In this document: piece by piece, positions 1,956 through 52,714 of the stretch
How the letters are laid out: each line of letters starts with the position of its first letter
How positions within the stretch are numbered: the first letter of the stretch is position 1
Assembly (NCBI GenBank): GCA_030704615.1
Contig: CM060733.1
Location: 27,900,001-27,964,000 of the forward strand
DNA: 64,000 nucleotides
Direction of reading: 5' to 3'
DNA from: Takakia lepidozioides
Lineage: Eukaryota > Plantae > Bryophyta
Notes under the pieces: generated by a model
What the model saw: only the letters and a program-made list of their open reading frames with translations
The model's database searches: none
What the model was told of the DNA's origin: nothing
Position numbers and translations under genes: made by a program

Positions 1956-2027
1956 CTTTGTGGGTGTAAAATATATCAAAATATGGTGTTTGAGTGTTGG
2001 GGATGGAGAGGAAACCAACCTAATAGA

Positions 2028-2470
2028 GGTGAGGAGAAGCTTTGGGGTGAACACTTTCCGACCCCAGTCACGGTGGGACAATGGAGACAAAAAGGTGAAT
2101 GCCTGTTGGATTACAGAGAGAAGCAGATGCATTTCAGATTGTGATAAGTAGGGTTGGGGTGTTTTGGGGAAGAACTCCACATCAGTATGGTTGGGATGTT
2201 TGCTGGTAGAATTCTAGGCTGTCAAAGGCATGGATAGCTGAAGGAGCAGGGATAGAGTGTGGGTCCAGATTCATCCAAGAGGGCTGGATTTCAAGCTCCA
2301 CATTACCTATGATTCCCTATGGAAGGATAGCTACAAGAAACCTACATGGGTAGATGGTCAACTGGAAGCCGCCGCAGCAACAGCACAATTGATCAAAGGC
2401 ACTGTTAATCAAGGCACATTCTTCAACACATTTCACCCTGTTTTTCCCTCTGATCAGAATTGGCCGTATC
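2028..2470 (+). pseudogene. Intron-split OSB-type PDF-motif module of the local PPR family
   Basis: EEKLWGEHF..PS.WWDNGDKK (1-nt indel), GT-AG intron 2095-2268, then IHPRGLDFKLHITYDSLWKDSYKKPTWVDGQLEA. Matches the OSB consensus W..FF.NP.EWWDNR..K.NP..PDFKHK.T..ALW...P.WV...L. Confidence 0.7.
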
Positions 2471-6095: not shown

Positions 6096-6490
6096 TCACA
6101 GGGAAAATAACCGCAACAAGTGGATGCTGCAGCACAGGATGTCCTGTGATTTGGGACTCAAAATGCCCTCATCAGTAATACGAACCAAAGCACCCAAACG
6201 CTTACAAGGATTGTGACCCTTTCCACTTAAACCCCTCTTCTCATGGTCAGTGTTGCAATCCTCACTATCTTGGTGCCATGGTTCGCCCCTTCGTGGGGGC
6301 CTCATCATAGCAATAGTAGCCATCTCAGCTTCGGTAAGGGTCGTTGAAGGTCCAAATTTTGTGTTGGGATTCACATCCTCCAATGCCTCCGCCACTTGCA
6401 TCCTTACGCATGGCTCATTCTCACCCAAGCTGACACCAGTGACATCATGTACCACGCGCCGTGAGCGCGGCTCCTTCTGAAGAAGACCAA
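6096..6490 (-). pseudogene. CACTA TnpA-like C-terminal domain fragment
   Basis: VTGVSLGENEPCVRMQVAEALEDVNPNTKFGPSTTLTEAE resembles the 'G.PLG....RV.V..V...' C-terminal domain of CACTA accessory proteins; compare 43648-43930. Confidence 0.4.
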
Positions 6491-8203
6491 TGCGGATGTG
6501 TTCTTGCAACCTCTGGTGGATGAGCTGGCCGTGTTGTGGGAAGGTGTTAGGGCTAATGATGCATCTCGCAATGAAGGATCAAGGACCTTTGTCATGAGAG
6601 TCATTCTGATGTGGTCAATACATGACTATCCTGCATATGCCATGCTAGCAGGGTGTGCAGTTGGGGGCTACAAGGCTTGTCCTGTGTGCGGGCCCAATCT
6701 TGATGCTAGGCACTCCAGTGCACTGAGCAAAATGGTGTACCAGGGGCACAAATTTTTTTTACCAGCAGGCCATCCATATAGACGCAATCACAACCACTTC
6801 AATGGAGCCTCCGATCACAGACCACCCCCCCCCCCCCCCCCCCCCCCAAGTATCCACTGTGGATCAGCTCCAAAATGCGGAGGAAAACGAGAGGTTCATG
6901 GAAACATTCGGCAGACGTCGCCGGAATGTGTGCCCTGCCAAATCCCATGGCATGAAGCGAAGGTTGATCCTTTGGAACCTGCCATATTGGAAGGTGGGTA
7001 TGTCTTCATTGTTTGTATGTCGGCAGGGCTGATTTCATAGTTGCATGGATACAGTTGTAAGGATCATCACACACGACTTAGATTTCAGCCTAATGCAAAT
7101 TGCATGAAGCAAGTTTGGAGTCGCCTATGTATGGCACATGTAACAGCAATATGGTTGTTTCCATGAAAATGTCTGGCTTTTGTCTCTCAAGATACTGTCT
7201 GCAGCATGCAAGACTGGTTTCTTCCTTTTCCCATTATTAAGATGTCATCTCTTGGCTTTACCATCAACGTATACCATATTGATGGTGGTTCCATGATTGC
7301 AGGATTTGTTGATAGGGTATACCCTTGATGTTATGCACTGTGAAAAAAACATTTCTGAAAACATATTGCGCACCATATTGGGGGAAAAAGGACACAATAA
7401 AGAGCAGGAAGGACATGGAGAATGAGGGCATACGACCTCACTTATGGTTAAAACCCCACCCCGGAGATGGCAGGAAGTTGGTGAAGCCGCAGGCTCCTTA
7501 CGTGTTGAATCGACAGGAAACTACTACCTTCTATGCAACTTTGGGTGCTCCAAAGACACTGACAGGGTATGGTGTTTCATTTAAGAAGCATATTGCTAAA
7601 GAACAAGCTTTCACACATGAAGAGTCATGACTACCATCTACTGATGCAACAAGTTCTACCTTTGTGCATTCGAGGTTTGCTGGGCAAAGGTCCAAGGCTC
7701 GCAATCATGAAGCTATCTCGTGTATTTCGCGCATTGTGCATGAAAACAGTGGATCCCGAGGAACTACCAGCCCTGAAGGAGGATGTGGTTGTAACGCTTT
7801 GTTTGTTGGAGAAAGAGTTTTCCCCCTCATTCTTTGATCTCATGACCCACCTTGTGTTACACCTTGTGGATGAATTGGAGGTTTGTGGTCCTGTTAGTTC
7901 ACGTTGGATGTACCCCATCGAGAGGTACATGAAAAATTTGAAGGGATATGTGAAGAGCTATGCCCGGCCAGAAGGTTGCATGGCCAGCAGGTATTCTCTT
8001 GATGAGGCTCTTGGCCTCCTCACAGAGTACATGGCTGCATTTCCAGGAACTCGTAGAAGGGTCTGGGATTCCAACGAAAAATAAAGTGTTGCGGGAGAAG
8101 TATTAGAGGGCGAAGGAACTCCAAGGAAACTGTCGGCTGAGCTTCGGGCCAGTGCACACGACTATGTGCTTCACAACACGGCGTGCATGAGACCGTTTCT
8201 GAG
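6490..8203 (+). pseudogene. CACTA TnpD transposase (Transposase_21/DUF4218-type), spliced and frameshifted
   Basis: DVFLQPLVDELAVLWEGV; WSIHDYPAYAMLAG; YKACPVCG; LWNLPYWK then donor ~6993; acceptor ~7302; LDVMHCEKNI; MKSHDYHLLMQQ; FFDLMTHLVLHL; GPVSSRWMYPIER. Several frameshifts and a stop. Confidence 0.9.
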
Positions 8204-8399: not shown

Positions 8400-9352
8400 T
8401 TTTCTTCAACCTGTTTCAGTCTGTTTTGCCCTCTCATCGCTGAACACCGCGGCTGGGTGCCGGCACTTGGATCTAGGGACAAGAGGGATGGTTTGGATGT
8501 GACTGAGGAACATCATGCTGAGCTGCGAAGGATTCGGAGGAGCATGAGTGTCAGCGCTTCCACGAGAAACGCAAGAGTGAGATGGCGCTAATAACCAACT
8601 TGCTCGGGCATCGCCAACCACACAAACCAGCATTGATAGGAGAGAGCAGGAGCACTTCGTTGAGTTATTTGACCTTCATTTAGGCGAGCCACTACATGGT
8701 AGGGACGACTCTGAAGGAATTGGGGAAGGTTCAAATTCTTCATTGTTGCAAGGGACAAGTGCGGAAGAGCCTGTGTTGGCCTTTGGGAGAGGAGAGGGGT
8801 CATCTGATTTAATAGATCTTGCAAATGATTTGTCGCCGCCAAATGGCCGGTTTCAGGTAGAGAGATTGTCTCTCTTTCCAGATGCCAGTGATGTTGCAGG
8901 GGGCAGAGGGGCCGGGAGCTCACAAGCACATATCTCACTCTTAGAGAGCTCTGAGCCTGGACCCATAAATGGCACCAGTGAACATGCAGGGCCTCAGTGG
9001 TTTTCTCGGTTTGGCAGGGAGGCTCTTCGGGACATGGGAGAAGGCTCTCTTCGTGGCAATGAGGACAAGATCCTTAGGTTAGAGGAGACTGCAATGCAAG
9101 TAGATCCGTCAGATCTGAGAAGAAGCGGGGCATTTAACAACAACAATAGTTCAGCGGAGCCTGAAGCTTCCTCCAATCTGCCAATGCGAGAAGGGATTGG
9201 GCAACCAGGTAGAAGCTTTCCGTCAATTGCCAACAGAAGGCTTGGATGCTCAGTAGTTCGGAGGTGCCCACACAGGCGCATTGGGTCGAGGTCAGGGTTG
9301 GATGGTAGGGTTGTGAGAAGGGACCTGGGTATGGTTCCTATGCAAACAGATG
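8400..9352 (+). other. Probable captured or orphan host exon encoding a long, low-complexity, disordered-type frame, fused to an inverted PPR fragment
   Basis: Frame is open from ~8582 to the abrupt junction with minus-strand PPR DNA at ~9353. S/G/E/R-rich, with no TE motifs. Confidence 0.4.
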
Positions 9353-10433
9353 AGTCCCTTTGCATCCTGGATGCTCCCACATTTAGCATACATGTTCATC
9401 AGGGCAGTGTTCAGAACGGCATCTGGTACATTCCAGCTTTGATGATGTCACCATGGACGTCTTTGCCCTTTTCGAGGGCTGCAAGGCTTGCACATGCATT
9501 GCAAATGCAAACGAACGTGATATGGTTGGGCTTCACCCCTTCCTGCATCATTTGCTCATAAGTCTCCAATGCATTCCTACCACACCCATGCTTGGTAAAT
9601 CCTGCAATCATTATACTTGGTGTGCATCCATGATGCTCCCACACTTAACATACATGTTGCCCACGGTGTTGTGTATAATAACATTGGGTTTGAATCCACT
9701 TTGGATAATGTGAGCGTGCACCTGCTTTCCAGCTTCCATGCCTTTCATCTTGGTGCACTTATACAAGAGACAGACGAAATTACTGAATCTGCTGAAATTT
9801 GTCCTTGATATAAAGTCTGTAGAGCCTCTTTCAATCGCCCTGCCTCACATAGCATCCTCACATGCCCAAAAGTGCTAGAAGAGGCAGTGTGAACTCCTCT
9901 TGGCCGTCTACCGGAAGCTATGGACATAGTGGAGGTGCCTGGATTGATCAACTGTGCCGCTGCTTCTGCCTCCACTTGACCATCTACCCATGCAGGTTTC
10001 TTGTAGCTATCGATCCACATGGAATCAAGAGTAATCTTGTGTTTGAAATCCTGCCCTCTTGGATGAATCTGGACCCACGCCCCATCCCTGCTCCTTCAGC
10101 TATCCTTGCCTCTCCACCAATCCTTTATAGATCCTCGCCTTACTACTAGCAGCTGACAATGACATCCTGGTTTGTTCTAGCCAACACCCCAACCTTACTT
10201 ATCACACACTAGTCCCTAGGCTGAATTGCTCCAAGACTTATAAAATGTGATGGAGAGAGATAGGGGATGACAATTTCCAATAAAGCTTTGTGATGCATCT
10301 TGTTGTCTGCTTCTCTCTGTAGTCTAACAGGTATTCACCTTTTGCCTCAATTGTCCCACCATTGACTGGGGTCCAACAAATATTCATTCCAACACTTCTC
10401 CTCGCCTCTGTTATCTGTTTTTGGATACTTCAT
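9353..10433 (-). pseudogene. OSB-PDF motif + PLS-PPR fusion gene, 5' part, degenerate
   Basis: MKYPKTDNRGEEKCWNEYLLDPSQWWDN*GK, GT-AG intron 10338-10069, then IHPRGQDFKHKITLDSMWIDSYKKPAWVDGQVEA. This continues in frame to VRMLCEAGRLKEALQTL and then PPR L/S/P motifs (GVKPNHITFVCICNACASLAALEKGKDVH). Confidence 0.8.
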
Positions 10434-11399
10434 GTTGCCACATTTGTAGTACTTTGTCAAAATCACGCCAAACCACCATAGATCCACCCAACAAACCATA
10501 ACTCCCAGAATTCAACATAAAATATTAGGGATGTCTCTGATACCAGGGCACAACAAGCTGAAATGTGACATGTGAAGAGTTGCTCTCACGACATTGTCCT
10601 TGACCTTGTATCATGAAAGTAGCTAGCTTTTATTGAGGATTCAACCGACCATCAACCAAAAGGACCTCTTGTGTGTGCTGCTCATGTCTGTAGTCAGGTT
10701 ATCTCAGATTGAGACCACCACAGTGTAGCTGGGTAGCCATAGACTTAAACATGGCATCCTAAGACCAAGCTGACTCTCACAAGTACCTCGTAAACACCAG
10801 GGAAACTACATAATCATGACAATGACAGGAAGAGCCAACACTTGCAGCACGGACAAATTTTAGAAAGCCACACCTTGCAGTTGCGGTTGACCCACTGTAG
10901 TGAAGGATCTCTAAAAACCTCACGCCAGCGCTGCTCCATGCTCCGCAGTAGTCCTTCATGCCCAAAACTCCCCAACATCAACATTTTGCCAAGTTCTTTA
11001 TGGAGGAGTGCTAGTAAGCTTTCAGTAACATTCATACAAGTTCATTGGACTCTAATGAGGACCGTCTCAACCCTCCCAAGTACCTTACAAACTCTAGGGA
11101 GAAGACCTTGGGCATCCTACTTTCATGCCCTGCTCAGAAGGAACAATCTCCTACGCTTAAAAGCAGTTTTTGCAGATCAAAGCGACATTCTAACCTCACT
11201 CAGTAGAATTCAAACCACAAAAACATGAGTAGACCAAGTTCACTCAAACTCCTTCACATCCTACATGAAGAAAGCGCACCTTGTCGACGACCCACCATTG
11301 TGAAGGATCTTGTAAACAGGCGAGGGGCCGCATTCGAATCGTCAGCTCCGCCATGTGGTGCGGACATGACGCGAAAAGCACGCAAGCATGATGATTGCG

Positions 11400-11728
11400 A
11401 TCACCCTATGGCCATACATGACTATGTGTCACATCCTGGTATGTGAGGCCGGCCGTCATCATGGGATGATTGCAACACATGAATAAACGGATTCATGTGA
11501 TACATGTATACGGCTGGGGACCGGGCGGGCCTGAGGGGCGCTGGGGGTGGAGGGGGTGGGACGGGGTGGCGCGGGGAGGGGGGTGATGGGGGGAGGGGGT
11601 CTGGGGCCGCGGGGACCGCGAGCCGTGCAGGAGCTGCGAAGTGGGTGCGTCCGGGGGCGTGGGGAGTGCCACGCAGGCAGGACCCTTGGGCTCGCATTAA
11701 ACTCCCGAGCCTTTTCTAATGTGCGCCA
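11400..11728. repeat. GC-rich dispersed repeat, copy 1 (copy 2 at 63585-63868)
   Basis: Shared G-rich body and shared right end CTCGCATTAAACTCCCG(A/G)GCCTTTTCTAATGTGCGCC. Confidence 0.8.
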
Positions 11729-12690: not shown

Positions 12691-13395
12691 TCGGTTTCTC
12701 AAGTCACACTACACATGTAATTTGTAATTTGATTGGCATTTTCCGAGTCTGAGAAGTCTTATCTACTTTCTAAGAAAATCTTGGAGAACTTAGAAGGTCG
12801 TGATGAATTTACAAAAAACAATTTCATACATCAATTCAATGTCAAGTCAACCGTCATTGAGATTTGGGATTATCATTCAGATTCTTTTCTTTTGTAACAA
12901 AGTGGGTAAATGGTGTACTTATAAATCTATATTCGGGTACGTACTTGAAACTTGGGTGTGGGTAATGGGAAAAATTGCCCAAGGTTCAAAGAATGCAACC
13001 AATGAAGTTAAGCACTTGTACCTTTTGGGTGTCATCTTTAATCTCCAGCCTTTATGAACCTTTATTGAAAGTTGACGTGGGTCTTTTCTTGGTCTTCCCA
13101 GATTTGATTACTTCCAAAGCCATAAACAATTCACTTCTCCAACTTCAGATTGAATTTTAGTATCCTACTCATGTGACGTATTCTTGTTCTTCTGTACCCT
13201 ATATTAGTGCTGTAATTTAAAGCTTGATTGGAGCCCTTACAGGAAAGAGGGATAGGTGTAGTGTTTGAAAGAAAAAGAAGGACAGTTGGCCAAGTGAGCC
13301 TTCCAAGTGGACTTACTAGTAAGATTACTAGTAATTATCTAATATATATATATATATATATGTGTATGTTTGTAATTCATGTATTTCTTTTGACA

Positions 13396-13600
13396 GAGGC
13401 AGTGCTTAAGTCAATGAGGTTCAAGAACCGAGAAACAGAGTATCTCGTGAAATGGAAGGGCTATCATCATGTGGAGGCATCTTGGGTGGGTGTCTCAGAA
13501 ATGAGAAACGCATCCGAGGCGGTTGTAGCGTTCGAAGGGCGACCTCAAAAGCGGAAGAAACGTTGATGGGGACATCAACCTGGGATCTTGGGAGAGGAAA
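13396..13600 (+). mobile_element. Chromoviral Ty3/Gypsy 3' end: chromodomain plus purine tract
   Basis: EAVLKSMRFKNRETEYLVKWKGYHHVEASWV chromodomain, stop at 13566, then a PPT-like GGGAGAGGAAA before probable LTR sequence. Confidence 0.8.
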
Positions 13601-15131
13601 TGCATGCTTAGCCCGACTTAGCTAGTTCGGGAATCCGATTGCAAAAACTTGTGTTGTACAAATTTTGTTATAAATGGTTTCCAAATGTTGCGCCTCCTAT
13701 TTTGTTTGGAATGGTGATGCATGTTATGGTTGGCTAGTGTGTAGAATGCATGCTAGCTTACAAAAGTGGGAGAGGTAAATTGGATTAATCGTGTGTTTGC
13801 GTAGTGCCGAAATCGGGTGACTCCCATCCAAGGGGCAATGAAACTTGCGCCTTCCTTGGAAGTTCAGGTGCTAGTGCACACCTGGCGCGTGCGCGTACTA
13901 TAACTGCGCTACCGAGGGGGTTGCCTTGTAGTGCGGGCTAACGCGGAAGCTACGTGCTTCCGTTCACGTACTATAATCGTGTAGCCTCGGCGAAGTCGTA
14001 GTGCGGCTTTGGCGTGTTCCCGTACCTCAGGCCAGCATTCCAAGGCGGACCCAATTGTAGTGATTGGGGCACATGGTTAGTTCAAGGTTATTTTCCTAGT
14101 AAAAAAGGGTTCAAGGTGAACCCTTGCTCAAGATGATGCCAAAAGCGGCATCATGAGTGATCGCAAGCAATGTTGTTGCAGTAAGGCGATTCAATCCTCG
14201 GGGAAGATCGTTCCTTGGCCTTGAAGTAGGCCAAGAAGAGTGCACTGGGTGGGGCTTGAGAGGCTCCACCGTTGGCCGGGACTTGGAGGAAGTCGGCCGA
14301 ACTAGCTAGTGGAGAGTAGAGTCAAGTGTGGGGGTTGGTTCTTTGCCATGGGACGCCATGGTATGGAAACAAACTCCTTGATGTGGGATGCCACAACTTG
14401 GATGTTTGTTTATACAAAATAGACAAGTCGATGAGGACATCGACTCCCTATTGGTAGGGGTGTGTGTCGTGGCCCTTTGCATTGAGGGCAGGGGGTCGGG
14501 ACACAGGAGGGGCTGCCCTTGTGGTGGGGGCAGTGGCAGCGATAAGTACGGGGGGCTGAAGCACCCTTGAGTGCCCAAGGCACTCGAGGAGGCGGAGGCG
14601 CTAACTAGGTGGAGCCCTGCACACCGGGTTGCGGTGGGGGTGGCTCCACAAGGGGTGGTGGTAGCTTAGCGGGACTTAGTGGGGGTGGCATAGGACGGTG
14701 GGGCGGAGACCTTGTGGTGGGAATCGTGGGGAGTCTTGGGACTCATCACGGTCCAATGGGGCCATGGTGGGTGGGCCAAGACTCACCGCGAATCATCACC
14801 GGGAATCGAGGGTCTTCGTGGTGGTTCGCCATAAAATGGCATGGTTGTTTGTGAAACCCCCGCGGACAGTCACAGAAGTATATATAGGGAGTAGTAACCC
14901 CGATAACGGTGCAAGCCCGTTGGTGACAAAAAACTAGTGAGTAAGCGAGCGGGCCGAAGAGTGAGCAAGGAGTGGGGAGCTATTCCGGACTGCCATATAC
15001 TAAAGGGAATTTACACTAGGCCCAAATAGGTGGATGGTCTTTTGGAAGAGGGAAGGAGGACCATTATGTCCCGGTGAGCAGCCAAAGCTCCAAGTTGGCC
15101 CGGTGGCCAGGTTGGGAGTTAGGCGCGTGCA

Positions 15132-15490
15132 TCAAAGCGAGGAACTATGACTTGAAGGGGAGCTTACCGAAGTGAGGTGTACGACAATCTGCTTCACTAC
15201 GGAATTCACTCTTTCCGTTTGGCCGTCCGTCGTAGGTCGGAAGGCGGTGCTCATCTTTAGCCTCGTCCCCATCTTTTTCCAGAATGCCCTCCAAAATTTA
15301 CTCGCAAACTTTGGATCGCGGTCCGTGACAATATCCTTCGGGAGTCCATGATGCTTGAAGACGTGGGCGAAGTAAAGTCGCCCCGTCTCCTGCGCCGTTG
15401 CCGTCTCCTTAATGGGGATGAAATGGCCCATTTTACTGAACCTATCCACCACCACCATGATCGCATCGAATCCTTTTGACAGCGACATAA
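15132..15490 (-). mobile_element. Ty3/Gypsy integrase core fragment
   Basis: GFDAIMVVVDRFSKMGHFIP; HGLPKDIVTDRDPKFASKFW; MSTAFRPTTDGQTERVN. Confidence 0.9.
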
Positions 15491-15900
15491 CATTTTTTGT
15501 GGTTTTTTAAGAAGGACAACAGTTGTGTATGCGTAGACTCAATTCCAATCTCCTGGTAGGGGCTCCGATCCAACCTCTTCAGCATCCCCTGAGTTCGAGA
15601 GATCCGATGTGAATTGGAAGCACATCAAGCCCTCTGCAACGGCCAGGCTTAGCTTCTTCAGATAGTCTGTTGCTATTTAGTGCTATTCGTGCCAACCGCT
15701 TAGGCTCTGTCTATGTGGCTCTGTTTGTCTAGGTCTTCTTCTCGTTCCCTACTTCCCCAGTCTCCTGGCAATCCTTCGTCTGTTCTTCAGGGCCACATAA
15801 CATGAGTCTCTGAGTTATGGTTACTCGACCAAGTTAATTCTCCGTTGCAGGCCACAAGTCTGGTAGGATCGCTCTTGCTGCTTGTGAGAGGTTATTTTCC

Positions 15901-25215: not shown

Positions 25216-25806
25216 ACTATATATATAAATGTAAAGCCTCAAAATTTTATAGATAATGGACCCAAATGTCCGAGAATCACAAAGGGAAATTGATAACATG
25301 TGGGACAGCTATTTATAAATTTTAATATAAATTCAGGGTTTTGCTATTAGATATGTATGTTTACATAGGATTTTACGTAGCAGTAGCCCTATGGGGTCAA
25401 GTGACATCATAAGTTACGCTTGCTTCGGCAACACGTCCACCTTTTTTTTTTTTTTTCCTCATAAGATTTTAGGTTAAATATATTGATAGACCATGTAACC
25501 GACCCTATTAACGTAGCAATATTCTATGTTCAAGTATGACTTCTATTTCGTTTGTAAACATATCTCCCCAATAACTGTGGATTCTGGTCACCCCGGAATT
25601 TCCCCCCTGCTCACGCCGTTTCTGCTTACCCTGTGCTCATGCCATACCAATCCCCTAAAACTATTGACCGACAAATAACCAGAACCGAATGTATCCTAAA
25701 ATAGGGCCAATACTCCGAACCGGCCGGTATCATAAATCTATTATCCGGCCAATAACCGGAACCGGACATATCATAAAATACGGTGAATATTCGGAACCGG
25801 CATGTA

Positions 25807-26340
25807 TCATAAAACTATTGACGCTCGGAAGGGGCGTGTACCACAGAACTAGTAACCGGCCAATAATAGGAACCGGAGGTATCATAAAATAGCTGGTGAC
25901 TACTCCAACTGGTGTTTATCATAAAACTATTGACCGGCAAAACAATAGGGTGAATGCTCGGAAGGGGCGTGTACCACAGAACTAGTAACCGGCCAATAAT
26001 AGGAACCGGAGGTATCATAAAATAGCTGGTGACTACTCCAACTGGTGTTTATCATAAAACTATTGACCGGCAAAACAATAGGGTGAATGCTCGGAAGGGG
26101 CGTGTACCACAGAACTAGTAACCGGCCAATAATAGGAACCGGAGGTATCATAAAATAGCTGGTGACTACTCCAACTGGTGTTTATCATAAAACTATTGAC
26201 CGGCAAAACAATAGGGTGAATGCTCGGAACGGGCGTGTACCACAGAACTAGTAACCGGCCAATAATAGGAACCGGAGGTATCATAAAATAGCTGGTGACT
26301 ACTCCAACCGGTGTTTATCATAAAACTATTAACCGCCGAT
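25807..26340. repeat. 133-bp tandem repeat, ~4 near-identical units, with degenerate flanking sub-repeats
   Basis: ATCATAAAACTATT at 25918, 26051, 26184 and 26317 (period 133); a shorter first unit begins at 25807. Confidence 0.95.
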
Positions 26341-27563
26341 AACCAGAAGCAGATGCTGGTGAAAAATCGCCAGATTTTGATCTGAAAACTCGGTCAGCTA
26401 CTTGTACAAAGGAATTAGGGGGGATAAAATCCGAGATTTTCGCCAAAAAGCACCAGCAGATGAATTTCAGGAGCCTAATCTTTCCGACGTGGACCAGTTA
26501 ACATGTGACACCTGGAATGTAGCCACTGTTCTAACTCTATCACCTCGATATTCTCGCCACATGGGCACTGGGTATAATTCACAGGTGGCCCCGCCAGCCA
26601 TTTTGGAAAAAAAAAAAAAAAAACACTGAGCGGATGTATCATAAAATAGGCCCGTGAATACTCATTATGGTAAAACTATTAACCGGCCAATAACCGGAAC
26701 TTGACGGAGCTGGGAGCTGACAGATATCTGCAACAAGAAAGATAAATATATCCGCAAGCCGACAAAGCAGTTACAGTGAAAAGGTAAGAGCCGTAGGACG
26801 GTGATGAGGACACAGAGACATGGCGGTAAAGTCCTGGCCCACGACTGCCCTCCATCTCTGGCGCTTGTCGCGAGGGCGGATTTTCCCTTGCTTCAAGCCC
26901 ACGTGTCCATATCTGACACCTGTCCAGGGCCGGGCCAGAATCTGCAGTTACAGCCCTCTGCCCCGCCGGCCAAACGTGTAATAATCCTGTATTGGGGCAA
27001 TGCGAAAATGTCAACATGTTTAACTTACGTTTCGTTTGACATCTTCCTATTGGATTTAACCTCTGGAAAAAAAAACCTCTAGATGTGTTACATCCTTCCA
27101 GAGTAAAGGTGCACCGAAAGCTTTTATACTGAACTTACCCTTCAACAAGGTAATACCTCAGCATGCACATAGTTTCAAGTGCTCTGCTTGAGTTTACCTT
27201 TGTGTGGGGGTAACACACAAAAACAAAGGAATGGTTTTTTCCATCCACCAAGCACTATTTTCATCCATGAATCAAAGAATGGCAGGCACAAGGAAGTTTA
27301 ACAAGCGGCTAGATGGGTATGGCTCCTCTTTGCAAATAGTGAAATCTACTTTCATCCTTAATAAACCTGAGAATTCATTCATTCATTTTTTCATAAATTG
27401 TTCAATAAGAAAGATGTTATCTGAGGGGAGGGATTACCTTGAGACGCACATAAGTAGTTTTCAGCAAAGGAGAGGAGATAACGCCTGGAAGGGGTTACCC
27501 ATTTTTGTCAACGATGCCTCTTTGGAATAAAGAGGAGCCAAAAATAAAACAAAAGACTCTAGT

Positions 27564-28160
27564 CATTATACACAGTCAAAGAAAAGTCCGTTGTGCCACT
27601 TATAGTTTCCTAATTTCCGTCAAGGGGGGAAGGCAGAACAGGGGCTTAGCGATTTTTGATGCCTAATTGACCGTTCCGTCAAGGGGGGAAGGCACAAAAG
27701 GGGCTTAGCGATTTTTGATCCCTAATTGATCGTTCCGTCAAGGGGGGAAGGCACAAAAGGGGCTTAGCGATTTTTGATCCCTAATTGAGCGTTCCGTCAA
27801 GGGGGGAAGGCACAACAGGGGCTTAGCGATTTTTTATCCCTAATTGATCGTACTGTCAAGGGGGGAAGGCACAAAAGGGGCTTAGCAATTTGTGATCCCT
27901 AATTGATCGTTCCGTCAAGGGGGGAAGGCACAAAAGGGGCTTAGCGATTTTTGATCCCTAATTGATCGTACCGTCCGTCGATGGGGGATGGCACAACAGG
28001 GGCTTAGCGATTTTTGACACTGATGCGTAGCCTCATTATACAGTCAAAGAAAAGTCGTGTGCGACTTATAGTTTCCTACTTGATCGTTCCGTCAAGGGGG
28101 GAAACCACAACAACAGGGGCTTAGTGATTTTTTATTCCTAATTGATCGTTCCGTCAAGGG
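27564..28160. repeat. ~59-bp tandem repeat (about 9 units) upstream of hexokinase
   Basis: GATCGTTCCGTCAAGGGGGGAAGGCACAAAAGGGGCTTAGCGATTTTTGATCCCTAATT repeated. The leader CATTATACA..GTCAAAGAAAAGTC is duplicated at 27564 and ~28035. Confidence 0.95.
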
Positions 28161-29531
28161 GTCGCCTCGACAAAATGGAGAGTTGTAGGGTGGTTCACTC
28201 CGAGGGTTGCGATATTGGATAATTAGCTTCAATTCCTTGTTGCTTGTAATTCACTACAGCAGTGGGATCTTATTCACCTATGATCTGGGTACGAATATAC
28301 TAGCAGGAAGAACCATTTAGGAGTCGATCTTACTTTTCTTTTCATCCATCCCCCTGAATCTCTGATATTAATAAAAGACCAAGCTAGGAAGAGGACAAGA
28401 CTGAATATGTTTAGAAATAACCTAGTCATAAATAACAGACTATTAGTGATATTATTAGAAGGATAAGTTCTGATTAAGGTTAAGTAATCACTTAAGCCTT
28501 GATCTAAGTAGGGATTAGGAGGTCTTAAGCAGGGTGAAGAGTTAAGGCAAGCAGGATGGTGGGGCCTTGGTAATATTCAAAGGGGCAGAGAGGGCGGGGT
28601 GATCGATACATACTAGTAGGGCACAGACCAGGATTCACACCCCGTTGAATATGTAGGCTGCGTTGAACTGTGCAGCAGCCCACGTTCTCTTGTGTTTCAA
28701 CTCATCGCCAGTCTCTTCAATCCTACTTGGGAAGTTGGGAGATCTGCTTGCTGCACAGTGTTTTTTCTTTTTTCCAGCAAGATTTCAAACTTGGGTTGTT
28801 GATCGATCGCTCTGAAGGGGATGCATTGCATATTTTTGGGAGGACAGGGATGGATGGGTTCTGCAAGCATTGCAAGGCCTTAGCAGTGATGGATCTGAGC
28901 CAGGGAGCAGCAGCAACAGCTTCTCTCCAGCTTCCATAGAGGTCACACACCTTCTGCTGCTCTTGGAGTGCACACGTTTGTGTTTGTGTTTTGGTTGAGG
29001 GGTCTCTGTCGGTGTCTGTAGGCTGGCGGGAGCTTCGGAAGAGTTAATTGCAGTCGATGAACGCGATCTGGTTCGGCGGTCGCTCGATCGATTAGCTGTC
29101 TCGGGCAATGATGGGGACACGTAGGCCCGAGACGAAGTGGTACCGTGCCATAAATTCCACTTAGGAAAGGAATGCTAATGCGGTTGTCGGTTCGACGTCA
29201 TAGCAACACTCCTCCTACGAGGTGTAAATCTGCTGGGAATACATTCGGAGTGGGGTCTGCGAGCTTGTTCCGCCTCTGCCAGGGTCCGTTGTTGTAGGTG
29301 AACGTGTGTGTGCGAGAAAACAAAAGTCAGTACACCCGATCGTCCAGAATAGTTTTTTTTTTTCCCCCTTTAAGCGTGGAAGTAGGTCCTGAGATGGCAG
29401 GCTTTGTGGTTGCGCAGACTAAGGAGGTGAGGCAACCAAGGGGTAGAATTCGCCAAGAACCTCAAGGCCACAAGGCCAGCTGAGCAGGTGTTTGTCATCA
29501 AGCCAGTTTTCCGGAGTCATTCCCCGGCAGC

Positions 29532-34925
<5,394 letters not shown>

Positions 34926-39655: not shown

Positions 39656-42396
39656 AGAGAAGAGAGAATAAGACTCTAGCCTGAACCGGCGTAACTAAGA
39701 GCCACTTCGCCTTGCGGCTCCTGCCCCTTTTCAGGGGTGGGCCTTATGTGAGAACCGGTGTCCAAATGACACCACTGGACAAGCAAAGGGAGTAGTACCC
39801 GTGGCGCAAGGGGTACAAGGTGGTACCCGTGGGGCCCATGGGTACCGACAAAGTACCCAGAGGCGCCCTGCACCTATGGGAGGGGAGGAGGGCTGGATTC
39901 GAGCTGGCGTTTGTTGCTGATGATAGCAGTGAGAGATCGAAGTGCGGTGAGGTGTATGGCTTTGAAGCATTTGTGGATGGAAATGATAGGGATTTGGAAA
40001 TTGTTTAGAAGGGCAAAGATGCTATCATTATGGATGCCCCCTCTGGTGCCAGCAGTGATGACAGTAAGTGGGCCTGTGGCCCATCCCCGTCGTCGGATAG
40101 CAAGGATGAGTGGTGCATATTTTTGGCGTTTTTCGAGGATGGAGGAGCTGGGGAAGCGGTCATGGCAGAACGTAAATTCTATGAAATGTATGGTGATGGT
40201 TGGGGATGGTACAGACGGTGGGATAGCATTAATGGGGAGGCCCTCGACTAGGAGGATGTCTGGGCATAGTCTCGCGGGACATGTACATGACGTGTGAGGT
40301 TGGCATCTACAAGGAAGTAGCCATGTAGGTACCGTATGGTCCGGAGGCCGGCCTTGGTAGGTGCCAGCATTGATGAGTGTAAACCATCTAGTTTCATTGC
40401 GTCATAATAGGAGTTTATGGATATGCCATACGGCATGGTTATGTCTAGCAATACGAAGTCCGTGAATGACGGGGTATGGACATTCGCTAAGAAGATGGGG
40501 CCAGGTATCGCGTGTGCGTGGATGTGGGAGTAGAGTGGGCAGTGCGGAGATGGGAATAGGGTAGGCCAGAAGGTGTGTTTGCGTTGATGGCCCATGTACT
40601 GGGCGTATCTGAATTTAAGTGTTTGTCGTATTTGTGCATCAGATGCAGCTTTAGTATTCCAGAAGTGGTTTGATAATTTATGGTGAAGGACAATGGAGAT
40701 GATCCATTTTTGGATCTGTAGTTTGGTGTGGCTAAGAGAGGCTAAAGCTTGTTTGTTGGCTTCTTTAGTCAGGGTGGTAAGGAGGTTACGAATTGGACAG
40801 GGTTTTAGGGGGTCAGGTATCCGGTGAATCAGCCAAAATGGGTGGACATCAGCAATGTGGATGGGGTCGGCTGACGGTTCTACTGGGGGTTTGGAGGCCC
40901 CCAGCTGGGCAAGGAAGTCTGCCTCCTCGTTGCCATTAATACCAGTATATGAACGAACTTTGAGAAAAGGACGGGTTTATCGATGGAGATGGCGAGGTTG
41001 ATAATAGCATAGATAAGGTTTCGATCGGGGTGGCGGTGGTGGGAGGAAGGGCAGGCAATGTGGTTACGAAGTATAAAGAGTGAGTTAAGGCTATCCGTGA
41101 AGATGTAGTATGGTGGCGGAAACGAGGCTAATTGTGATAGAGCTTAAAAAATAGCCATAAGTTCGGCACGGAGTATGGTTATGGAGCCTGGAAGTTGATG
41201 GGCGGTCCCATGGTTAGTGGCGGCATGGTAGACGCCATATCCGGCATGGGAGCCAGATTGGGAGCCGTCTGTGTAGTGTGAGTGGAGTGGGGGATATTTG
41301 GGGGAGGTAGGCCCCAAATAAACCGAAGGGGCATCGTGGGAGGTTACATTATGGAGGGTAATGGGGCGGGGTGGTGTCTTGTCCCATGCTTTGTTAGTTT
41401 TTGGCCTAGGGGGTGGTCTGGCGAGAGGGCTGTGTGCTGGCGGGGGTGAATAAGTGGTGAGTACCATGCCATGGATGTCGGATAGAAGATGTTTGAGGCG
41501 AGTGGGAAAGTCTGGCAGTATGGAGGTATGGGGGGTATTTTGGACGAGTAGAAGTAGGGTTAGAGTGGGTTCTTTGTGGCAGAGGTACTTGGGAAAAGGT
41601 AGGTTGCGTGTATAGCGAAGTTGGTTGGGTTCAATGGCTGCTAATGGTGTTACCCCCCTGGGGAGTTGTAGAAGGGGGTGTTGTTGGTCAGGTGACCTTT
41701 GCTGTGTGAGAATGAGGATAATGGTGGAGGAGGGGGAGGAGTGGGCGGCAAGGCGCCATTGAAGAGCCTCATGTGTGAGGGGCCCGGGTGGCGGGTGGGC
41801 AAGGCCGCTGCCCGACCAGGTATGTTCGGTTGCGGAGCTTAGGGCTCCGAATACACAGTCGCGAGGGTGCAGGCTGTCATAGGAATCGAGCTCAATGGGA
41901 CACGTGAGTGGACTTGAGTAATAGGAGTGGGTAATCTGAAATGAGGTAATGAGAAACTTGAGGATGTTTGAGGGGATGGTGCTATGTATATAGGCTTGAG
42001 CTAGTTTGTTGTGGGGTTTTTTTGGAGGGGTGTCGCTTATATATCTATCAACAAGCCAACAGACTTCAGTGGCGAAGTCTTGCTTTGGGGGTTGTAGCTG
42101 GCTAGTGTGAGTGAGGGAGGCAGTATATTTATCCCAGAGCCAGGCAATCCTGACATGAGAGATAGACCCGACAAAGCGACCATTGATTGTGTAAATATTG
42201 GATACTGTACGGCTGGGGCATATGATGGGGAAGACTTGGTTAATATCTTTGTCGGGGTTACATTCAGTGATTGTTATATGAATATTTGGGGCGACTAATG
42301 GGTTGCGAATGTATCGGGCGTCCATCGATTGGGTTTGGGAGATATGGTGTTTGTGGGTGTGTACCAAGTATTGGGTGTTAGTTGAGAGTACATGTC
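39656..42396 (-). mobile_element. Dualen/RandI-like LINE 3' part: RNase H + CCHC finger + restriction-like endonuclease + TC-rich tail
   Basis: RNase H: HYTDGSQ..AGYGVY..TILRAELMAI..IFTDSLNS..KVRSYTGINGNEEAD. Finger region: DTWPHLLSEC..ARHNHAV. REL: RLCPDILLVEG..IEFTFCHDRF..KRQKYAPL. Several stops and frameshifts. Confidence 0.85.
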
Positions 42397-45300
42397 CACT
42401 AGAAGAGAAACCGGCTTTTTCCACGGCTCTTTTCACACTTTTTGCCGTGGAATCCGCCCCAGTCCACACCTGCCGTAGGTGTAAGAAACGACTAGTGCTT
42501 TTGGACACCCCGTGGACGGCCTGGCTCTCGAGTGGCCCTGTGGAAAAGTCCACAGGTGGTTGAATCCACGGGTGGCCTTTTTCACGGGGTTCATGGCTTT
42601 TTCCACGGGCGACGTGTGCTTTGGCGAACACCGCAACGTGGATCCTAGATGTACAAAGGTGTGGACTTGTCCACACCTAAGGAAAAACCATGCGACAGCC
42701 TGTCACCAGGGTTTGACGACATCTGGGCAACGGTGTGTGCAACACGTGTATTTTTGTGAGGATGACACGTGTATGGACACGAAGAGGCGTTGTGCACGTA
42801 TGTGGAGCGGACATCTGGCGTGGCATGTGGGTGTGAAAAAAGCCATTCGGTGTGAGACCATCCACTGGCTCTTTTCACAGCTTCAGCAAGTTTGGAGGCC
42901 ACGTGTTCTTTGGCAAACACCGCCACGTGGATTCTAAACGTACAAAGGGTGTGGACTTGTCCACACCTACGGAAAAATGATGCGACACCCTGTCACCTGG
43001 GCTTGACGACATGTGGGCAACAGTATGGGCAACACGTGTATTTTGGAGAGGATGGCACGTGGCATAATCTGCATGGAGTGGGTGTGTAGTATTTTACTGC
43101 CTATACTGTAGGCCATTCCACATAGCTGTGGAGCATACCATAGTGGGTGTGAAATATTCTACTGCTGATGTTGTAGGTCATTCCACAAAAATGTGGAGGA
43201 TGCCACAGGCAAGCTGCGGTTGATTTCACATATTTGTGACGTCATGGTGTGCACAATTAATCCACAGGCATTATGATCATATCACAAATCGTGATATTGT
43301 CCACACTGTCAATTTCACAGTCCATGTGAAATATGACTCATATACATAAACACAATTCCAAAGCACCACGGCAACAACCTGCTCATGACATGTACAATTG
43401 ACTAAGCATGGCCAGAACAACAGAAAGAATGACCAGATGCAAGGGTGCTTCAAAGTTGGGTACGCCCTTCATTGCCCAAATACAGTTTAGTCTGAACATG
43501 CAAGTATTGTAGAGTCTGCACTGCTGATCACAACCCCACAATGTACCCAAATCCTACATTGATGCGCAAAATCACGAAGAAAAGGTGAAATCGATATGAA
43601 GTGGCGTTCAGTCAAAATTGCCTTCAAACTGAGGATCCCCCACAACCTCATGTTCGGGTCAGTTTGAGGAACTTGGCAGACCACAGGGCTGTGCTGCCTA
43701 CAGTGTCACTGAGCATCACAACGAGAGGCCTAACATCATTGTTGGGGTATGGTAGAGCAACATCTGCCCCATGTACTGTTTCAACCGAGACAACATGATA
43801 ATCGGCATGAACGACATAAGCCTGCCAGTCAGTCGACATGCCCAATATATGGCCCACGCTTGCCTTCCGTTTGGGTGCATTGGGGTCAAACATTGTGACC
43901 TTGTCACCAACCTGAAACTGGAACAGCCAACACCACCAATGTGTGCCCTTGTCATTTGTTATGCACATGAAACAGTTATGGACAGGGAAAACGCGAGATG
44001 TCATCATATAGCCAAAATACGGATGTACTTCCACGAAGGGAAACTTACAACAGGAGCCGGCGCTTTGAAGCTTCCCATACGACTCCCATCAACGTTGCTG
44101 GCAGCAAGTCTTGCGGACTTCTTGGTCATCTTCACCGCAACAATTTCCTTTGGTGGCTTCTGAATCAATAGAAACCCACACATGTACACATAATTCATGA
44201 ACGGCCTGCAGGTATTGCATAATCGACTTGGAACAGCACAAGAATATAGGAACACGAGTACTTACCTTCCGAACAACGGCCAATTTTGTTGTTGAATCAA
44301 TGTTCTTCCCTGCCCCAACAATAACCACTTCTGTGCCCTTAGCCCCTGCCCCTATGTCTTGGGCACTCTGTCTAAGTTCACTGCCGGTGTGATCCTCCAC
44401 TACAGGCACTCCCTTCTCAATAAGGGGGGATAGGTCATCATTGGCACCATAATTAAGGCAAGGATCGTCACATGCCATGTTCTGAACTTTGTCCTCACCT
44501 GTGGCATCTTCTTCCACAATACTGCCCCCTTTCCTTTGTCCACTGCCTCCACTGCTAGGAGGCTGCTCACCTGTACTTGTCATTTCCACAGTAGCCGCAG
44601 GTGGGACAACACCATGAACAGGGGGCAACAACTCACACACAATGTTTGATGCTGATGGAGATTCATCCCTAAGCAGGTCCAAACCGAGCTTCGCTGCCAA
44701 TGCCATGTTGAACTTCTCTGTCTTAGATACTGCAGCAGCAAACATGGATTTCACTACCTGCAATTCCAATTTGTGCTCCATTGAGCTGGCCTCCATTGTA
44801 TGTTTCCATCCTTCCAAGCCATCAAGCCGAGAAGCCAATGCTCCAAGGCCCTGCCACAAATAGAGTGCAAATACGATTCAATACATCGATCGCACTAGCC
44901 ATGCGAGGTAATTTATTGGCATATGTACAAGAAGGCAAAACCATAAATAATTGACAAGCACATCATTGCAACAAATGCAGGTGGGTTAGTTACTTACAGA
45001 ACGGGTGGCCCCTGCTGAATCAGAACCATACCCCTTGTTGCTATTCTTGCTCCCCGAAATTTCGGATAGAAGTGGAGGACGACCACTTGTCTTAGCCTAC
45101 ACATGGACATGATATGGGAATATTAGTGCCATCCTCTAAGAGTAAGATACAAATGACAAGACACCTCGCTACCTGAATATATTGGCAATGTCATGAGACA
45201 GGCAGATTTACCAGACGTTCCTCAACGCCGCTAAGGCCACTGCGTCCAGATCTCGAAGGGGCACCAACATGCCCCCGTGCATGCTTGCCATTATCAGTAC

Positions 45301-48189: not shown

Positions 48190-51100
48190 TAGTTGTCAGA
48201 GCTGCAATTGTACCACATGTCATTCTGAACAATACCCTCGTGGACATGTATGAAGGGAGTGTTTGACAGTATGGCTGAACAAGATGTGGGTGTCGTGGAG
48301 TGCGATGATTGCAGGATATACACAGCTACGGTGTGGGATGGAGGCTTTTGAGAACTATGACCAAATGATGTGCAAAGGGGAGAAGCCCAACCACATCACA
48401 TTTGTTTGTGTTTGCAATGTGTGTGCAAGCCTGGGAGCTCTGGGAAAGGGGAAAGAGGTCCATGGTGACATCGTCAAAGCTGGAATTGTACCAGATGTCA
48501 TCATGAACACTGCCCTAGTGGACATGTTTGTCAAATGTGGGTGCATTCAGGATGCGGAGGGAGTTTTCCACACTCTGGCTGAACGAGATGTGTTGTCGTG
48601 GAATGCCATGTGTGCAGGGTATGCACAGCAGGGGCACGGGATGGGAGGCTTTGGAGACCTATGAGCAAATGATTGGGGAAGGGTGAAGCCCAACCACATC
48701 AGGTTTGTGTGCGTGTGCAAGCCTGGCAGCCCTGAAAAAGGGCAAAGAGGTGCATGGTTGCATCGCCAAAGCTGGAATTGTATCAGATGTGATTCTTTAT
48801 GGATCAATAGCTACAAGAAACCTGCATGGTAGATGGTCAACTAAAGACTGCAGCTGCAGCAGCACAGTTCACGAAACCTCAACCATGACCACAGCTTCTG
48901 AAAGAGGATCAAGAGAGGGAGTCCAAAATGCCTCTTCTGGCACTTCTGGGCATGTGAAGATGCTTTGCGGCAGGCAGACTGACGGAGGCTCTACAGACTT
49001 AAAACCAATGAGGCATTTCAGCAGATTGAGGTACGTATGTCTGTCCCTTGCTCAAGTGCAACAAGATGGAAGGTCTGGACGCTAGAAAGCAGGTGCACAC
49101 TTACATTATCCAAAGTAGATGCACGCCAAATGTTTTTCTACTCAACACCCTTGTCTCCATGTATGTTAAGTGCGGGAGCATCATGGATGCTCACCAAGTG
49201 TTCAACAGAATGCCTCAACGATCTTTGATCATGTAGAATATAATGTTGGCAGGAGTTCCCAAGCATGGGTGTGGTAGGAATGCTTTGGAGACCTATGAGC
49301 AATTGTTGCGCGAAGGGGTGAAGCCCAACCACATCACATTTGTTTGTGTTTGCAATGCGTGTGCAAGCTTGGGAGCTCTGGAAAAGGGGAAAGAGGTCCA
49401 TGGTGACATCATCAAAACTGGATTTGTACCAGATGTCATTCTGAACACTACCGTGGTGGACATGTATGCCAAATGTGGGTGCAGCAAGCCTGATGCGAAG
49501 GGAGAGTTCGACAATGTGGCTGAACGAGATGTGGTGTTTTGCTGTGCCATGATTGCAAGGTATGTGTAGCATGGGTATGGGATTAAGGCTTTGGAAACCT
49601 AAGAGCAAATGATGTGGGAAGGGATGAAGCCAGACCAAGTCATGCTCATTTGTGTTTATAATATGCATATGCGAGCTTAGCAGCCCTGGGAATGGTCAAA
49701 GCGGTTCAAGGTGACATTATCAAAGCTGGAATTGTACCAGATGTCATTCTGAACATTCCCCTGGTGTACATCTATGCTCACCAAGTGTTCAACAGTGATC
49801 TTTGATCATGTGGAATATAATGTTGGCAGGATTTACCAAGCATGGGTTGATAGGAATGCTTTGGAGACCTATGAGCAAATGTTGCGCGAAGGGTTGAAGC
49901 CCAACCGCATCACATTTGTTTGTGTTTGCAATGCGTGTGCAAGTTGGGAGCGTTCTGTTGTAGTGATTACTTTTTTGACCCCAGTCAACGGTGGGACAAT
50001 CAAGGCGAAAAGGTGAATGCCTGTTGGATTACAGAGAATAGAAGATGCATTTGAGCATAGGAACTAGTGTGATAAGTTGAGTTGGGTGTTTCCTAGAACA
50101 ATTCGAGGCTTTCATTGTCAGCTGCTAGCAGCAAGGCAAGGGTGAATGCATGATTTTGGCAGAGGCATGGATAGCTGAAAGAGCAGGGATAGAATGTAGG
50201 TCCAGATTCATCGAAGAGGGCTGGACTTCAAGCTCCTATGATTCCCTGTGGATCAATAGCTACTAGCAACCTGCATGGATAGATGGTCAACTGGAAGCTG
50301 CAGCAGTAGTGGTGGAATTGATAAATCAGGCACTGCTAATGAAGGCACCTTCTTCAACACATTTCACCCTGTTTTTCCTTCTTATCAGAATTGACCCTAA
50401 GTTTCCATGTTGAATTCTGCATGTTAGCTGGTTGAGTGAACCTTTGATAGTTTGGAGTGACTTGACATGATACTGCCAATGTGACAACAAGAAAGTATCC
50501 AGAAACAGATAACAGAGATGAGGAGAAGCTGTGGAATGAATACTTTTCTTACCCAGTCAATGGTGGGACAATTGAGGCAAGAAGGTGAATGTCTGTCTGA
50601 TTATAGAGAGTAGCAGATGCAATTGAGCATAGGAACTAGTGTGATAAGTTGAGTTGGGTGTTTCCTAGAATAAATCTAGGCTGTCATCGTCAGCTGCTAG
50701 CAGCAAGGCAAGGATGTATGCATGATTTGAGCATAGGCATGGATAGCTGAAGGAGCAGGGATAGAGTGTGGGTCCAGATTCATCCAAGAGGGCCAGAAAG
50801 AGGTCTATGGTGACATTGTCAAAGCTGGAATTGTACCGGATGTCATTCTGAATACTGCCCTGGTGACATGTATGCCAAATGTGGGTGCATTAAGGATGCG
50901 AAGGGAGTTTTCAACACTATGGCTGAACGAGATGTGGTGTCATGGAGCGCGATGCTTGCAGGGTCTGCACAGCAGGCCGGACGTGGTATGGAGGCTTTGG
51001 AGACCTATGATCAAATGATGGGGGAAGGGGTGAAGCCCGACCACATCACATTTTTGTGCATTTGCAAGCCTGGCAGCTCTGGAAACGGGCACAGAAGTCC

Positions 51101-52714
51101 ATGGCAACATTGTTAGAGCTGGAGTTTTACCAAATGTCATTATGAACAATACCCTCGTGGACATGTACATGCAAAATGTGGGAGTGCAATGATTGCAAGA
51201 TATGCCCAACATGGTTGTCGTAGGGAAGCCCTGCAACTATTTGAAGGTATGCAAAAGGAAGGCTTCAAGCCAAATGGTATCGCCTTTTTAAGTGTTCTAC
51301 AAGCATGCAGCCATGGGGGCCTAGTGGATGAAGGCAGACACTACTTTGATTCTCTGAGTCGAGATCATGGTCTCAATCTTATAGTGGAGCACTTCGGCTG
51401 CATGGTGGACCTTCTTGGCCGTGCAGGGCTGAAAGTTTGGAAGCGGCAGCAGTGCACAAGCTTCTTTCTGCAATAATCCCTATGGAACCAATATGGACTA
51501 CTACAATCCTTGGATCCCTGGTCTGGTTGCAAAGATTCAAAGACTGGTTGTCGAAGCCCAGGAGAAGCAAAAAAGACACCAGATTATTGATGATGTAACT
51601 TTTATTTGAAGTTAATCAAGAGCTTGATGTCAGAGATGGCTAGTTCTTCCTCATTGTTTCTGAACTGTCCTGTATTGTCAGAGATATTCTTGGCCTGATG
51701 GTCAGAGTCAAACAATGCTATATATCCTACCATAATTGTTTCCAACTGACAGGAAGAGAGAAATTGTACCGAGTACTGATTGGACCTGTCAAAGATGAGC
51801 TTGATACACTACTCAAACCTGAGGATACCCTCATGTTCGTGCCATATGAGGTACAATAGTAAATGTATGGTTTGCCTACTAGGGTTCAAGTGAGCTGTGA
51901 GATGCATGTTGCAACAAGGATTGACTGTGGTGTACTCAGGCCGAGTTGGTGTAGGGCCTTGAGACAACAGGCCTTCATTTCTCCCTAGAGCACGATCCTG
52001 TTGTGGGTGGAATAATGAAGAATAATCTAGGCATAACTTTATAATTAATACTCAGCAGTGCAGACGCTGATCTAATGTTGCCCCCCAAAAACAGCAAGAA
52101 TGAGAGATCAAACTCATCTTCAAGTAGAGGTGCTAATGTTGCTAAAGGAGAAAGCAACGTACTCGAAGACATTGTTTGTTGTAGCCTTGCAGCCCATGTT
52201 GCTAAAGACATTGATATTACTTAGCAGTCAGATTGTTCATCACTGGCTACATTCTATGGAACATAAGAGCATTCTGGTAACAATCAAGTTATAGTTACAC
52301 CAATGTAGTGGGCAAAAGTATGAGCACGAAGTTTGGAAATCGATGAAAACCCCTAAATCTGAGGTTGAGGACTTCATTAACGAAATGCCAGTCCAACCAA
52401 ATGTGGTGGTGTGGAAAGCCTTGCTTGGTGCCTGCAGAATTCATGGCAATGTGGAGGTGGCAGAACGAGCGGCAAAATCTATTCTTAGATGGGATCGACA
52501 GGATGCTACTACTAATGTGCTGCTATCAAATATCTATGTCGCAGCTGGCAGGTGGGATGATACTGCAAAGGTAAGAACAATGATGAAAATCAGAGGTGTC
52601 CGAAAGCAACTAGGTTCCTGCTACATGGAGATCGGCAACCGGGTCCACATTTTGTGGTACATGACAAACTGCATCCAGAGCTACCCAACAATTAAACCCA
52701 GGGCTCAGCCTTGA
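48190..52714 (+). pseudogene. Scrambled PLS-E(+) PPR pseudogene cluster with OSB-PDF modules and an insertion in the E domain
   Basis: PPR triplets at 48190-49945 and 50800-51430. PDF modules at ~48800, 49965-50345 and 50495-50790. E motifs EHFGCMVDLLGRAG (to ~51430) resume at ~52361 with EVEDFINEMPVQPNVVVWKALLGACRIHGN..LLSNIY..W..MKIRGV. E+ start (F)VVHDKLHPE is present; no DYW domain is seen. Confidence 0.9.
51753..51850 (+). other. Possible captured exon of a CHAT-domain (caspase/HetF-like) protein within the ~930-bp insertion
   Basis: AG/GT-flanked 98-nt exon reading REKLYRVLIGPVKDELDTLLKPEDTLMFVPYE, resembling the CHAT 'LY..LI.P......L..VP' motif. Confidence 0.45.

Follow-up and report, generated by a model that had tools for sequence, protein, structure and literature searches.

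The described systems closest to the locus analysed here are the OSB proteins, among them OSB2 (identical to pTAC9), and the PLS-class pentatricopeptide repeat (PPR) editing factors, in which the PLS array reads RNA sequence and the DYW domain converts C to U. RRM-PPR fusions form a further point of comparison. In OSB proteins, the PDF motif is the ssDNA-binding part (PMC6963530, PMC6451138; papers are cited here by PMC number and for the parts accessible to us); AtOSB1 and AtOSB2 favour ssDNA over dsDNA or RNA, and the motif has been described as confined to green plants (PMC4166229). The extra domains given for Physcomitrium PPR proteins in the accessible part of PMC9459714 are RRM, LAGLIDADG, SMR, NYN, CBS and SAP; PDF is not among them.

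Our analysis of a 64-kb window of Takakia lepidozioides DNA (64,000 nucleotides, the whole stretch analysed) reveals a decayed locus in which PDF motifs stand ahead of a PLS-type PPR array, and relates it to a family of such fusions in other seed-free plants. Like OSB proteins (AtOSB1-4), PDF-PPR proteins contain one to three PDF motifs with the same core residues and the same intron in the motif, but they lack the OB-fold/SSB domain, and their PDF is N-terminal, before the PPR array, whereas that of OSB proteins is C-terminal. With PLS-class editing factors of the E and DYW types (Physcomitrium PPR56 and PPR65) they share the PLS repeats, the E motif and, in 42 of 43 DYW-ended relatives, a DYW domain with HxE and CxxC; the difference lies in the extra N-terminal PDF, and the window locus itself is broken. 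The RRM-PPR fusions (PPR4; RRM-DYW and RRM-E) likewise place a general nucleic-acid-binding module on a PPR array (PMC13386178), but the PDF stems from a DNA-maintenance protein, matches no Pfam model and has no solved relative that we could find.

A decayed PDF-PPR locus

The locus lies on the minus strand and consists of the following parts:

11289..11315, minus strand: possible further first-half PDF remnant, weak (22 nt, 86% to 10910-10889, E 0.02; one contig joins 10703-11291)
10874..10945, minus strand: first half of the upstream PDF motif
10714..10873, minus strand: putative intron inside the upstream PDF motif (donor-like AAG/GT at 10874/10873; RNA-contig joint 10712-10874)
10591..10713, minus strand: second half of the upstream decayed PDF motif (GRLNP type, two stops)
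10431..10590, minus strand: putative intron separating the two PDF modules (with decayed splice sites; joint 10430-10591 in two run X1 contigs)
10339..10430, minus strand: exon with the first half of the PPR-proximal PDF motif (OSB-type proteins align)
10069..10338, minus strand: GT-AG intron (270 nt) inside the PPR-proximal PDF motif (OSB and PDF-PPR genes elsewhere are split at this codon boundary; 269 nt are missing here from RNA contigs)
9970..10068, minus strand: second half of the PPR-proximal PDF motif
9862..9969, minus strand: linker from the PDF to the first PPR-like helix, in open frame
9355..9861, minus strand: what is left of a PLS-type PPR array (the frame changes three times, abrupt end at 9355; blastx to P0179 and P0125)

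On re-reading, the upstream exon of the PPR-proximal motif reads EEKCWNEYLLDPSQWWDN, a stop (TGA, 10349-10347) and GK, with 1 nt missing at the donor; the stop, the 1-nt loss and the GT..AG intron at 10338-10069 had all been seen in the first-pass annotation and are borne out. The downstream exon starts with IHPRGQDFKHK, continues with PAWVDGQVEA further on, and stays in open frame as far as VRMLCEAGRLKEAL. The annotation had the exon running unbroken into PLS motifs and took the locus itself for an in-frame PDF-PPR fusion, neither of which holds: the frame shifts at about 9780, 9615 and 9425, and the PPR sequence ends at 9355, where loose RNA-contig ends go on as PPR-like sequence. Compared as an array rather than repeat by repeat, the remnant matches P0179 and P0125 along their PLS arrays, at 31-55% and spread over three frames. 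Nine of the 13 core residues are kept in the PPR-proximal PDF, two being lost at the breaks, and neither an E motif nor a DYW domain is left at the end of the locus. With one stop, four frame breaks and the loss of PPR sequence beyond 9355, the locus is not an in-frame editing factor; it is a pseudogene of the PDF-PPR family, and almost certainly the dead copy of a real one. The upstream decayed PDF motif had been overlooked in the first reading.

Further broken copies, and remnants of other elements, lie elsewhere in the window:

2021..2402, plus strand: broken copy B, a PDF exon pair (intron 2095-2268) with no PPR behind
6465..8081, plus strand: CACTA-type transposase fragments, past the truncation (Pfam Transposase_21 and DUF4218)
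48782..49503, plus strand: broken copy C, with linker, PPR array and some of the PDF second half (76% to the locus across 724 nt)
49956..50306, plus strand: broken copy D, a PDF exon pair (intron 50013-50205, frameshift in the second half)
50358..50793, plus strand: broken copy E, a tandem duplicate of D (572-nt spacing)
52295..52711, plus strand: E-motif remnant ending a second PPR pseudogene cluster (Pfam E_motif, E 1.4e-14)

As first annotated, the donor is still in phase 0 in the copy at 2094 (174-nt intron) and in that at 50012, yet both are broken at other places. A cluster of decayed PLS-PPR arrays with a periodicity of about 303 nt occupies 46500-54200 on both strands, and a DUF4216 transposon fragment lies at 45211-45915. 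The CACTA fragments are 1.3 kb from the locus; a search for terminal inverted repeats around it found CACTA/CACTG words and picked out no end pair. Gypsy-like pieces occur at 13228-15506.

The split motif is an OSB-type PDF motif

The PDF motif spans some 50 residues, and an HMM was built from 33 such motifs of 14 non-PPR proteins. With X at the breaks, the PPR-proximal PDF scores 57.5 bits (best of 2000 shuffles, 1968 scored, 8.5), a value that is not fully independent because the HMM seeds were drawn from matches of the window's own exon. The upstream PDF (10945-10874 joined to 10713-10591), which is split at the same place, scores 33.7 bits (best of 2000 shuffles, 1897 scored, 11.7). When the downstream exon was compared with 1.84 billion proteins by phmmer, 25 of the 27 matches contained the motif or its second half; Pfam assigns an SSB domain to seven, one bears the name OSB3 and two are PDF+PPR proteins. 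P0005 and P0015 were rejected as false matches. Profile and phmmer evidence thus agree in identifying the split motif as the OSB PDF motif, as the annotation had claimed. The SSB part of four OSB queries finds no match anywhere in the window, so the locus is not an OSB gene.

Other searches were negative: Pfam found nothing on the PDF exon of the locus, a word-based search with a 40-residue half motif gave no match, the best ESM Atlas score (0.80) is at chance level, and the viral contigs searched held no match. P0013, P0016 and P0003 are PDF-repeat proteins without SSB or PPR; one is named Effrenium voratum (a dinoflagellate) and one Welwitschia.

AlphaFold2 predicts a compact helix-strands-helix fold for the PDF motif alone (pLDDT 88.8, pTM 0.73), and in the model of a full-length Sphagnum protein the PDF likewise forms a domain of its own, in front of the PPR helices. 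Fold searches with the PDF model found no solved relative (Foldseek best E 6.2, VIA best Z 3.2, 0 phmmer matches); the lack of a clear fold match is no proof of a new fold. A predicted PDF homodimer scores 0.18, under the mark.

PDF-PPR fusions in other plants

The family set combines 76 matches, 120 listed of 149, and the phmmer matches into 164 clusters at 90% identity, with PPR status taken from the Pfam columns. The counts below are of clusters, not genes, are shaped by which genomes are deposited, and hold among the matches listed. PDF and PPR occur together in 125 of the 164 clusters, 35 have PDF without PPR, and 4 are without the full motif. The 125 are distributed over Diphasiastrum (98), Sphagnum (8), Ceratodon (5), Calypogeia (2), Adiantum (4), Pteridium (1) and others (7), and contain one PDF (96 clusters), two (22) or three (7). 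In 124 of the 125 all PDFs are ahead of the PPR array, and in 110 at least 20 residues precede the first PDF (median 73, counted by length). A DYW/DFW end is present in 43 clusters, with HxE and CxxC both kept in 42; 82 lack it, although some of these entries may be partial isoforms or decaying genes. None of the 125 fits a simple sequence pattern for the KP box/GRP-type end of the DYW:KP (U-to-C) subgroup, and PF00436 is not listed for PDF+PPR matches. Diphasiastrum P0062 consists of two fused units, with another PDF in its interior, and the DYW end of P0113 lacks the catalytic glutamate.

None of the 14 angiosperm-named matches listed in the word-based search has PPR repeats, which is weak evidence that the PPR-linked PDF is absent from angiosperms. 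No Physcomitrium or hornwort member is among the matches listed, and four Ceratodon DYW proteins carry the PDF; KAG0592855 is an intact Ceratodon member. The PDF-PPR proteins make up a genuine family with members in mosses, one liverwort, one clubmoss and ferns, and the fusion is not a local artefact.

A shared intron and a spliced fusion

A scan of metagenome contigs yielded 80 loci, 16 of them with PPR behind the PDF on the same strand, many as near-copies. Thirteen split-motif loci were examined: nine without PPR (seven with an SSB match) and four PDF-PPR genes. In every one of the 13, a phase-0 GT-AG intron follows the lysine that precedes it in the window, and this shared intron suggests that the PDF module derives from the PDF exons of an OSB gene. 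The PDF-PPR loci L046, L053, L056-L058, L062 and L063 are intronless, as expected of retrocopies (PMC13386178, section 6). L013 and its genomic counterpart L014, which has the shared intron, agree at 99-100% in blocks, and the introns are gone from L013. An open frame of 875 codons in L013 encodes PDF, PLS array and CGDYW end; it is an intact spliced PDF-PLS-DYW fusion from a peat-moss-like plant. With the intact members and this contig pair, the PDF plus PLS-PPR family proposed in the annotation does exist, and two conditions under which it would have been refuted, no HMM match to the PDF and no intact expressed PDF+PPR fusion, did not arise. Intronless genes of SSB plus a single PDF occur in L026 (3053-4303), L043 (3089-4117) and L070 (2-1351), whose contigs are rich in GC and probably come from algae.

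The RNA of runs X1 and X2 comes from the window's species, as judged with the hexokinase gene of the window as control: identity is at least 99% in 7 of 9 (X1) and 9 of 10 (X2) contigs, with 7 and 8 GT-AG joints. At 80% likeness, 4279 (X1) and 2223 (X2) contigs are placed on 9300-11400; they are paralogues of the locus, and contig depth was kept out of the evidence. The PDF intron is spanned by a joint 10070-10340 in four X1 and two X2 contigs, the short side being only 27-28 letters, and further joints agree with the upstream PDF exons. No Takakia contig spanning the PDF and the PPR array is among the X1 and X2 pieces listed. The exon 10340-10430 is found head-to-tail in RNA contigs (joint 91 nt back, 3 + 1 contigs), which suggests that paralogues with tandem first-half PDF exons exist.

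Selection and origin

Across 161 PPR-linked motifs, a set dominated by Diphasiastrum (130 of 161), the 13 core positions retain their residue in 2062 of 2093 cases, versus 1765 of 1846 in 142 non-PPR motifs. Pooled dN/dS is 0.13 over six pairs of four PDF-PPR loci, one of which (L053) has an early frame end; for window copies A (the locus) and B it is 0.76, from few changes. Judged from these comparisons, the PPR-linked PDF motif is under purifying selection, and core-residue conservation together with the low dN/dS suggests that the binding surface of OSB proteins has been retained.

In a tree of 82 motifs and 55 columns, for which 10 of the 130 Diphasiastrum motifs were sampled, the PPR-proximal motif of the locus nests with four moss-type OSB motifs (98/94; 67% identity), and the upstream motif is nearest to PPR-linked motifs. 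At the DNA level the locus matches only OSB-type loci among the 80 (73-78%), and its exon opens with the same GxY-like stretch as the OSB exon. An AU test rejects the grouping of the locus motif with bryophyte PPR-linked motifs (p 0.026, for a group named after seeing the tree) but does not reject one clade of all PPR-linked motifs (p 0.095). A second capture of the PDF from OSB in this lineage is likely on these sequence relationships.

Possible functions of the PPR-linked PDF

We tentatively favour the view that the PDF in living members is a sequence-independent single-strand anchor holding a predicted editing factor at nucleoid DNA near new transcripts. PDF exons from an OSB gene would have joined the front of a PLS-PPR gene, as the shared intron suggests, and likely did so a second time in this lineage; the PLS array would read RNA sequence and a DYW domain, own or borrowed, would turn C into U. 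The PDF would bind exposed ssDNA, in transcription bubbles, R-loops or replication intermediates, and anchor the protein at the nucleoid, and such anchoring may raise the local concentration of many low-abundance factors, each near its target. Since the core is unchanged from OSB, retention of the ssDNA ligand is the simplest reading, and many PPR proteins are associated with nucleoids (PMC10226603). Against this view, a shortened PPR56 in which only 14 residues precede the first repeat is an efficient editor in E. coli (PMC10482289), so an N-terminal module of any kind is unneeded for PPR56 catalysis; because the PPR56 repeats start near residue 213 (PMC7611903), such a module, if any, would go unseen with the 14-residue construct.

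A possible, if somewhat unlikely, alternative is that the PDF grips single-stranded RNA 5' of the PPR footprint and keeps the target unfolded, as a built-in accessory in plants without MORF proteins. Its N-terminal position in 124 of 125 clusters (among the matches listed) corresponds to the 5' side of the target by PPR-RNA orientation, and sequence or structure upstream of the target alters PPR56 editing (PMC10482289). The preference of AtOSB1/2 for ssDNA over RNA (PMC4166229) and the lack of divergence of the core residues from OSB speak against it, and the absence from seed plants is drawn from word-based searches, with 120 listed of 149 matches.

Rather improbable is a role of the PDF as a protein-contact or folding module, by which DYW-less members would borrow the deaminase of DYW-bearing ones or the array would be stabilised. 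Many members would need a deaminase in trans if the 82 of 125 clusters without DYW end (among the matches listed) are taken at face value, and AtOSB2 is a tetramer (PMC6963530), but DYW-less entries may in part be partial isoforms or decaying genes, and ssDNA binding is the sole function of the motif reported in the accessible parts of the literature searched (PMC6963530, PMC4166229, PMC6451138).

It is very improbable that PDF-PLS-DYW proteins deaminate C in organelle ssDNA at sites read by the PPR array. No report of DNA deamination by DYW was found in the accessible parts of the literature searched, targeted DNA mutation would remove the editing sites that the factors serve, and two thirds of members have no DYW; on the other hand, designer PPRs bind ssDNA by the same code (PMC5992170), 42 of 43 DYW ends among the matches listed look catalytically complete, and the DYW site superimposes on DNA-bound APOBEC3A (PMC7611903). 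If it were true, with the PDF clamping ssDNA, the PLS array reading and the DYW deaminating, seed-free plants would possess natural programmable ssDNA cytidine deaminases, and edits would occasionally be written into the organelle genome.

That the PDF exons have simply been carried along, without selection, as PPR genes multiplied is extremely improbable: the decay of the window copies (dN/dS 0.76 for A versus B, few changes) amid transposon remnants would fit, but the idea is largely refuted by the dN/dS of 0.13 and by 98.5% core conservation across mosses, a liverwort, a clubmoss and ferns. The chance of a purely local artefact of pseudogene decay, in which an OSB remnant came to lie beside an inserted PPR piece, is negligible, despite the 67% identity of the PPR-proximal PDF to a moss-type OSB motif and the lack of PPR behind copy B, for no SSB/OB-fold match to four OSB queries exists in the window, one open frame takes in the PDF half, the linker and the first PPR helix, all of which occur again in copy C, and the 2.1-kb stretch is covered by 4279 and 2223 RNA contigs, some of them joined across the PDF intron.

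Relation to earlier descriptions

No description of the PDF-PPR fusion was found in the literature searched; subscription papers and most supplements, which lie outside it, could mention one. PDF is lacking in the accessible domain lists of PMC9459714 and PMC13386178, the PDF passages of a review with both pentatricopeptide and PDF motif are silent on PPRs in its accessible part, and 'PDFKHK' is nowhere in the literature searched. The accessible parts of PMC6397227, PMC9508816, PMC10226603 and PMC5992170 hold no description of the fusion, and the 10 supplementary files of PMC6397227 contain neither 'DFKH' nor 'WWD'. New here are the same-codon phase-0 intron (13 of 13), the spliced contig with an intact PDF-PLS-DYW frame, the evidence of purifying selection and the suggested second capture.

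Few plant gene families have received as much study as the PLS-PPR editing factors, yet the literature searched appears to contain no account of this N-terminal domain, which is conserved in members from four seed-free lineages. It has probably escaped notice through the lack of a Pfam model, the intron that splits it and its routine removal with the targeting peptide in assays. PDF-PPR proteins link organelle DNA maintenance to RNA editing and give a handle on two questions: does editing depend on a connection with the nucleoid, and which helpers serve editing factors when a plant has no MORF proteins? Since four Ceratodon DYW proteins carry the PDF, these can be tested in a model moss, and the PDF may serve as a part for engineered PPR editors. 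The window locus itself is only a fossil of the family.

Other features of the window

The hexokinase gene (28900-34200, plus strand) looks intact, with eight GT-AG introns spliced in RNA contigs. A 510-codon open frame at 41144-42676 (minus strand) is probably a retroelement; it has RNase H matches and a weak PCIF1_WW match below the cut-off, and a strongly G-skewed stretch (40001-42000) adjoins it. Tandem arrays occupy 25690-26335 (133 nt), 27556-28027 (59 nt) and 56408-58133 (116 nt). A G-rich element of about 200 nt is present in two copies (11490-11700 and 63648-63840) that are 79% identical, the first of them directly upstream of the PDF exons.
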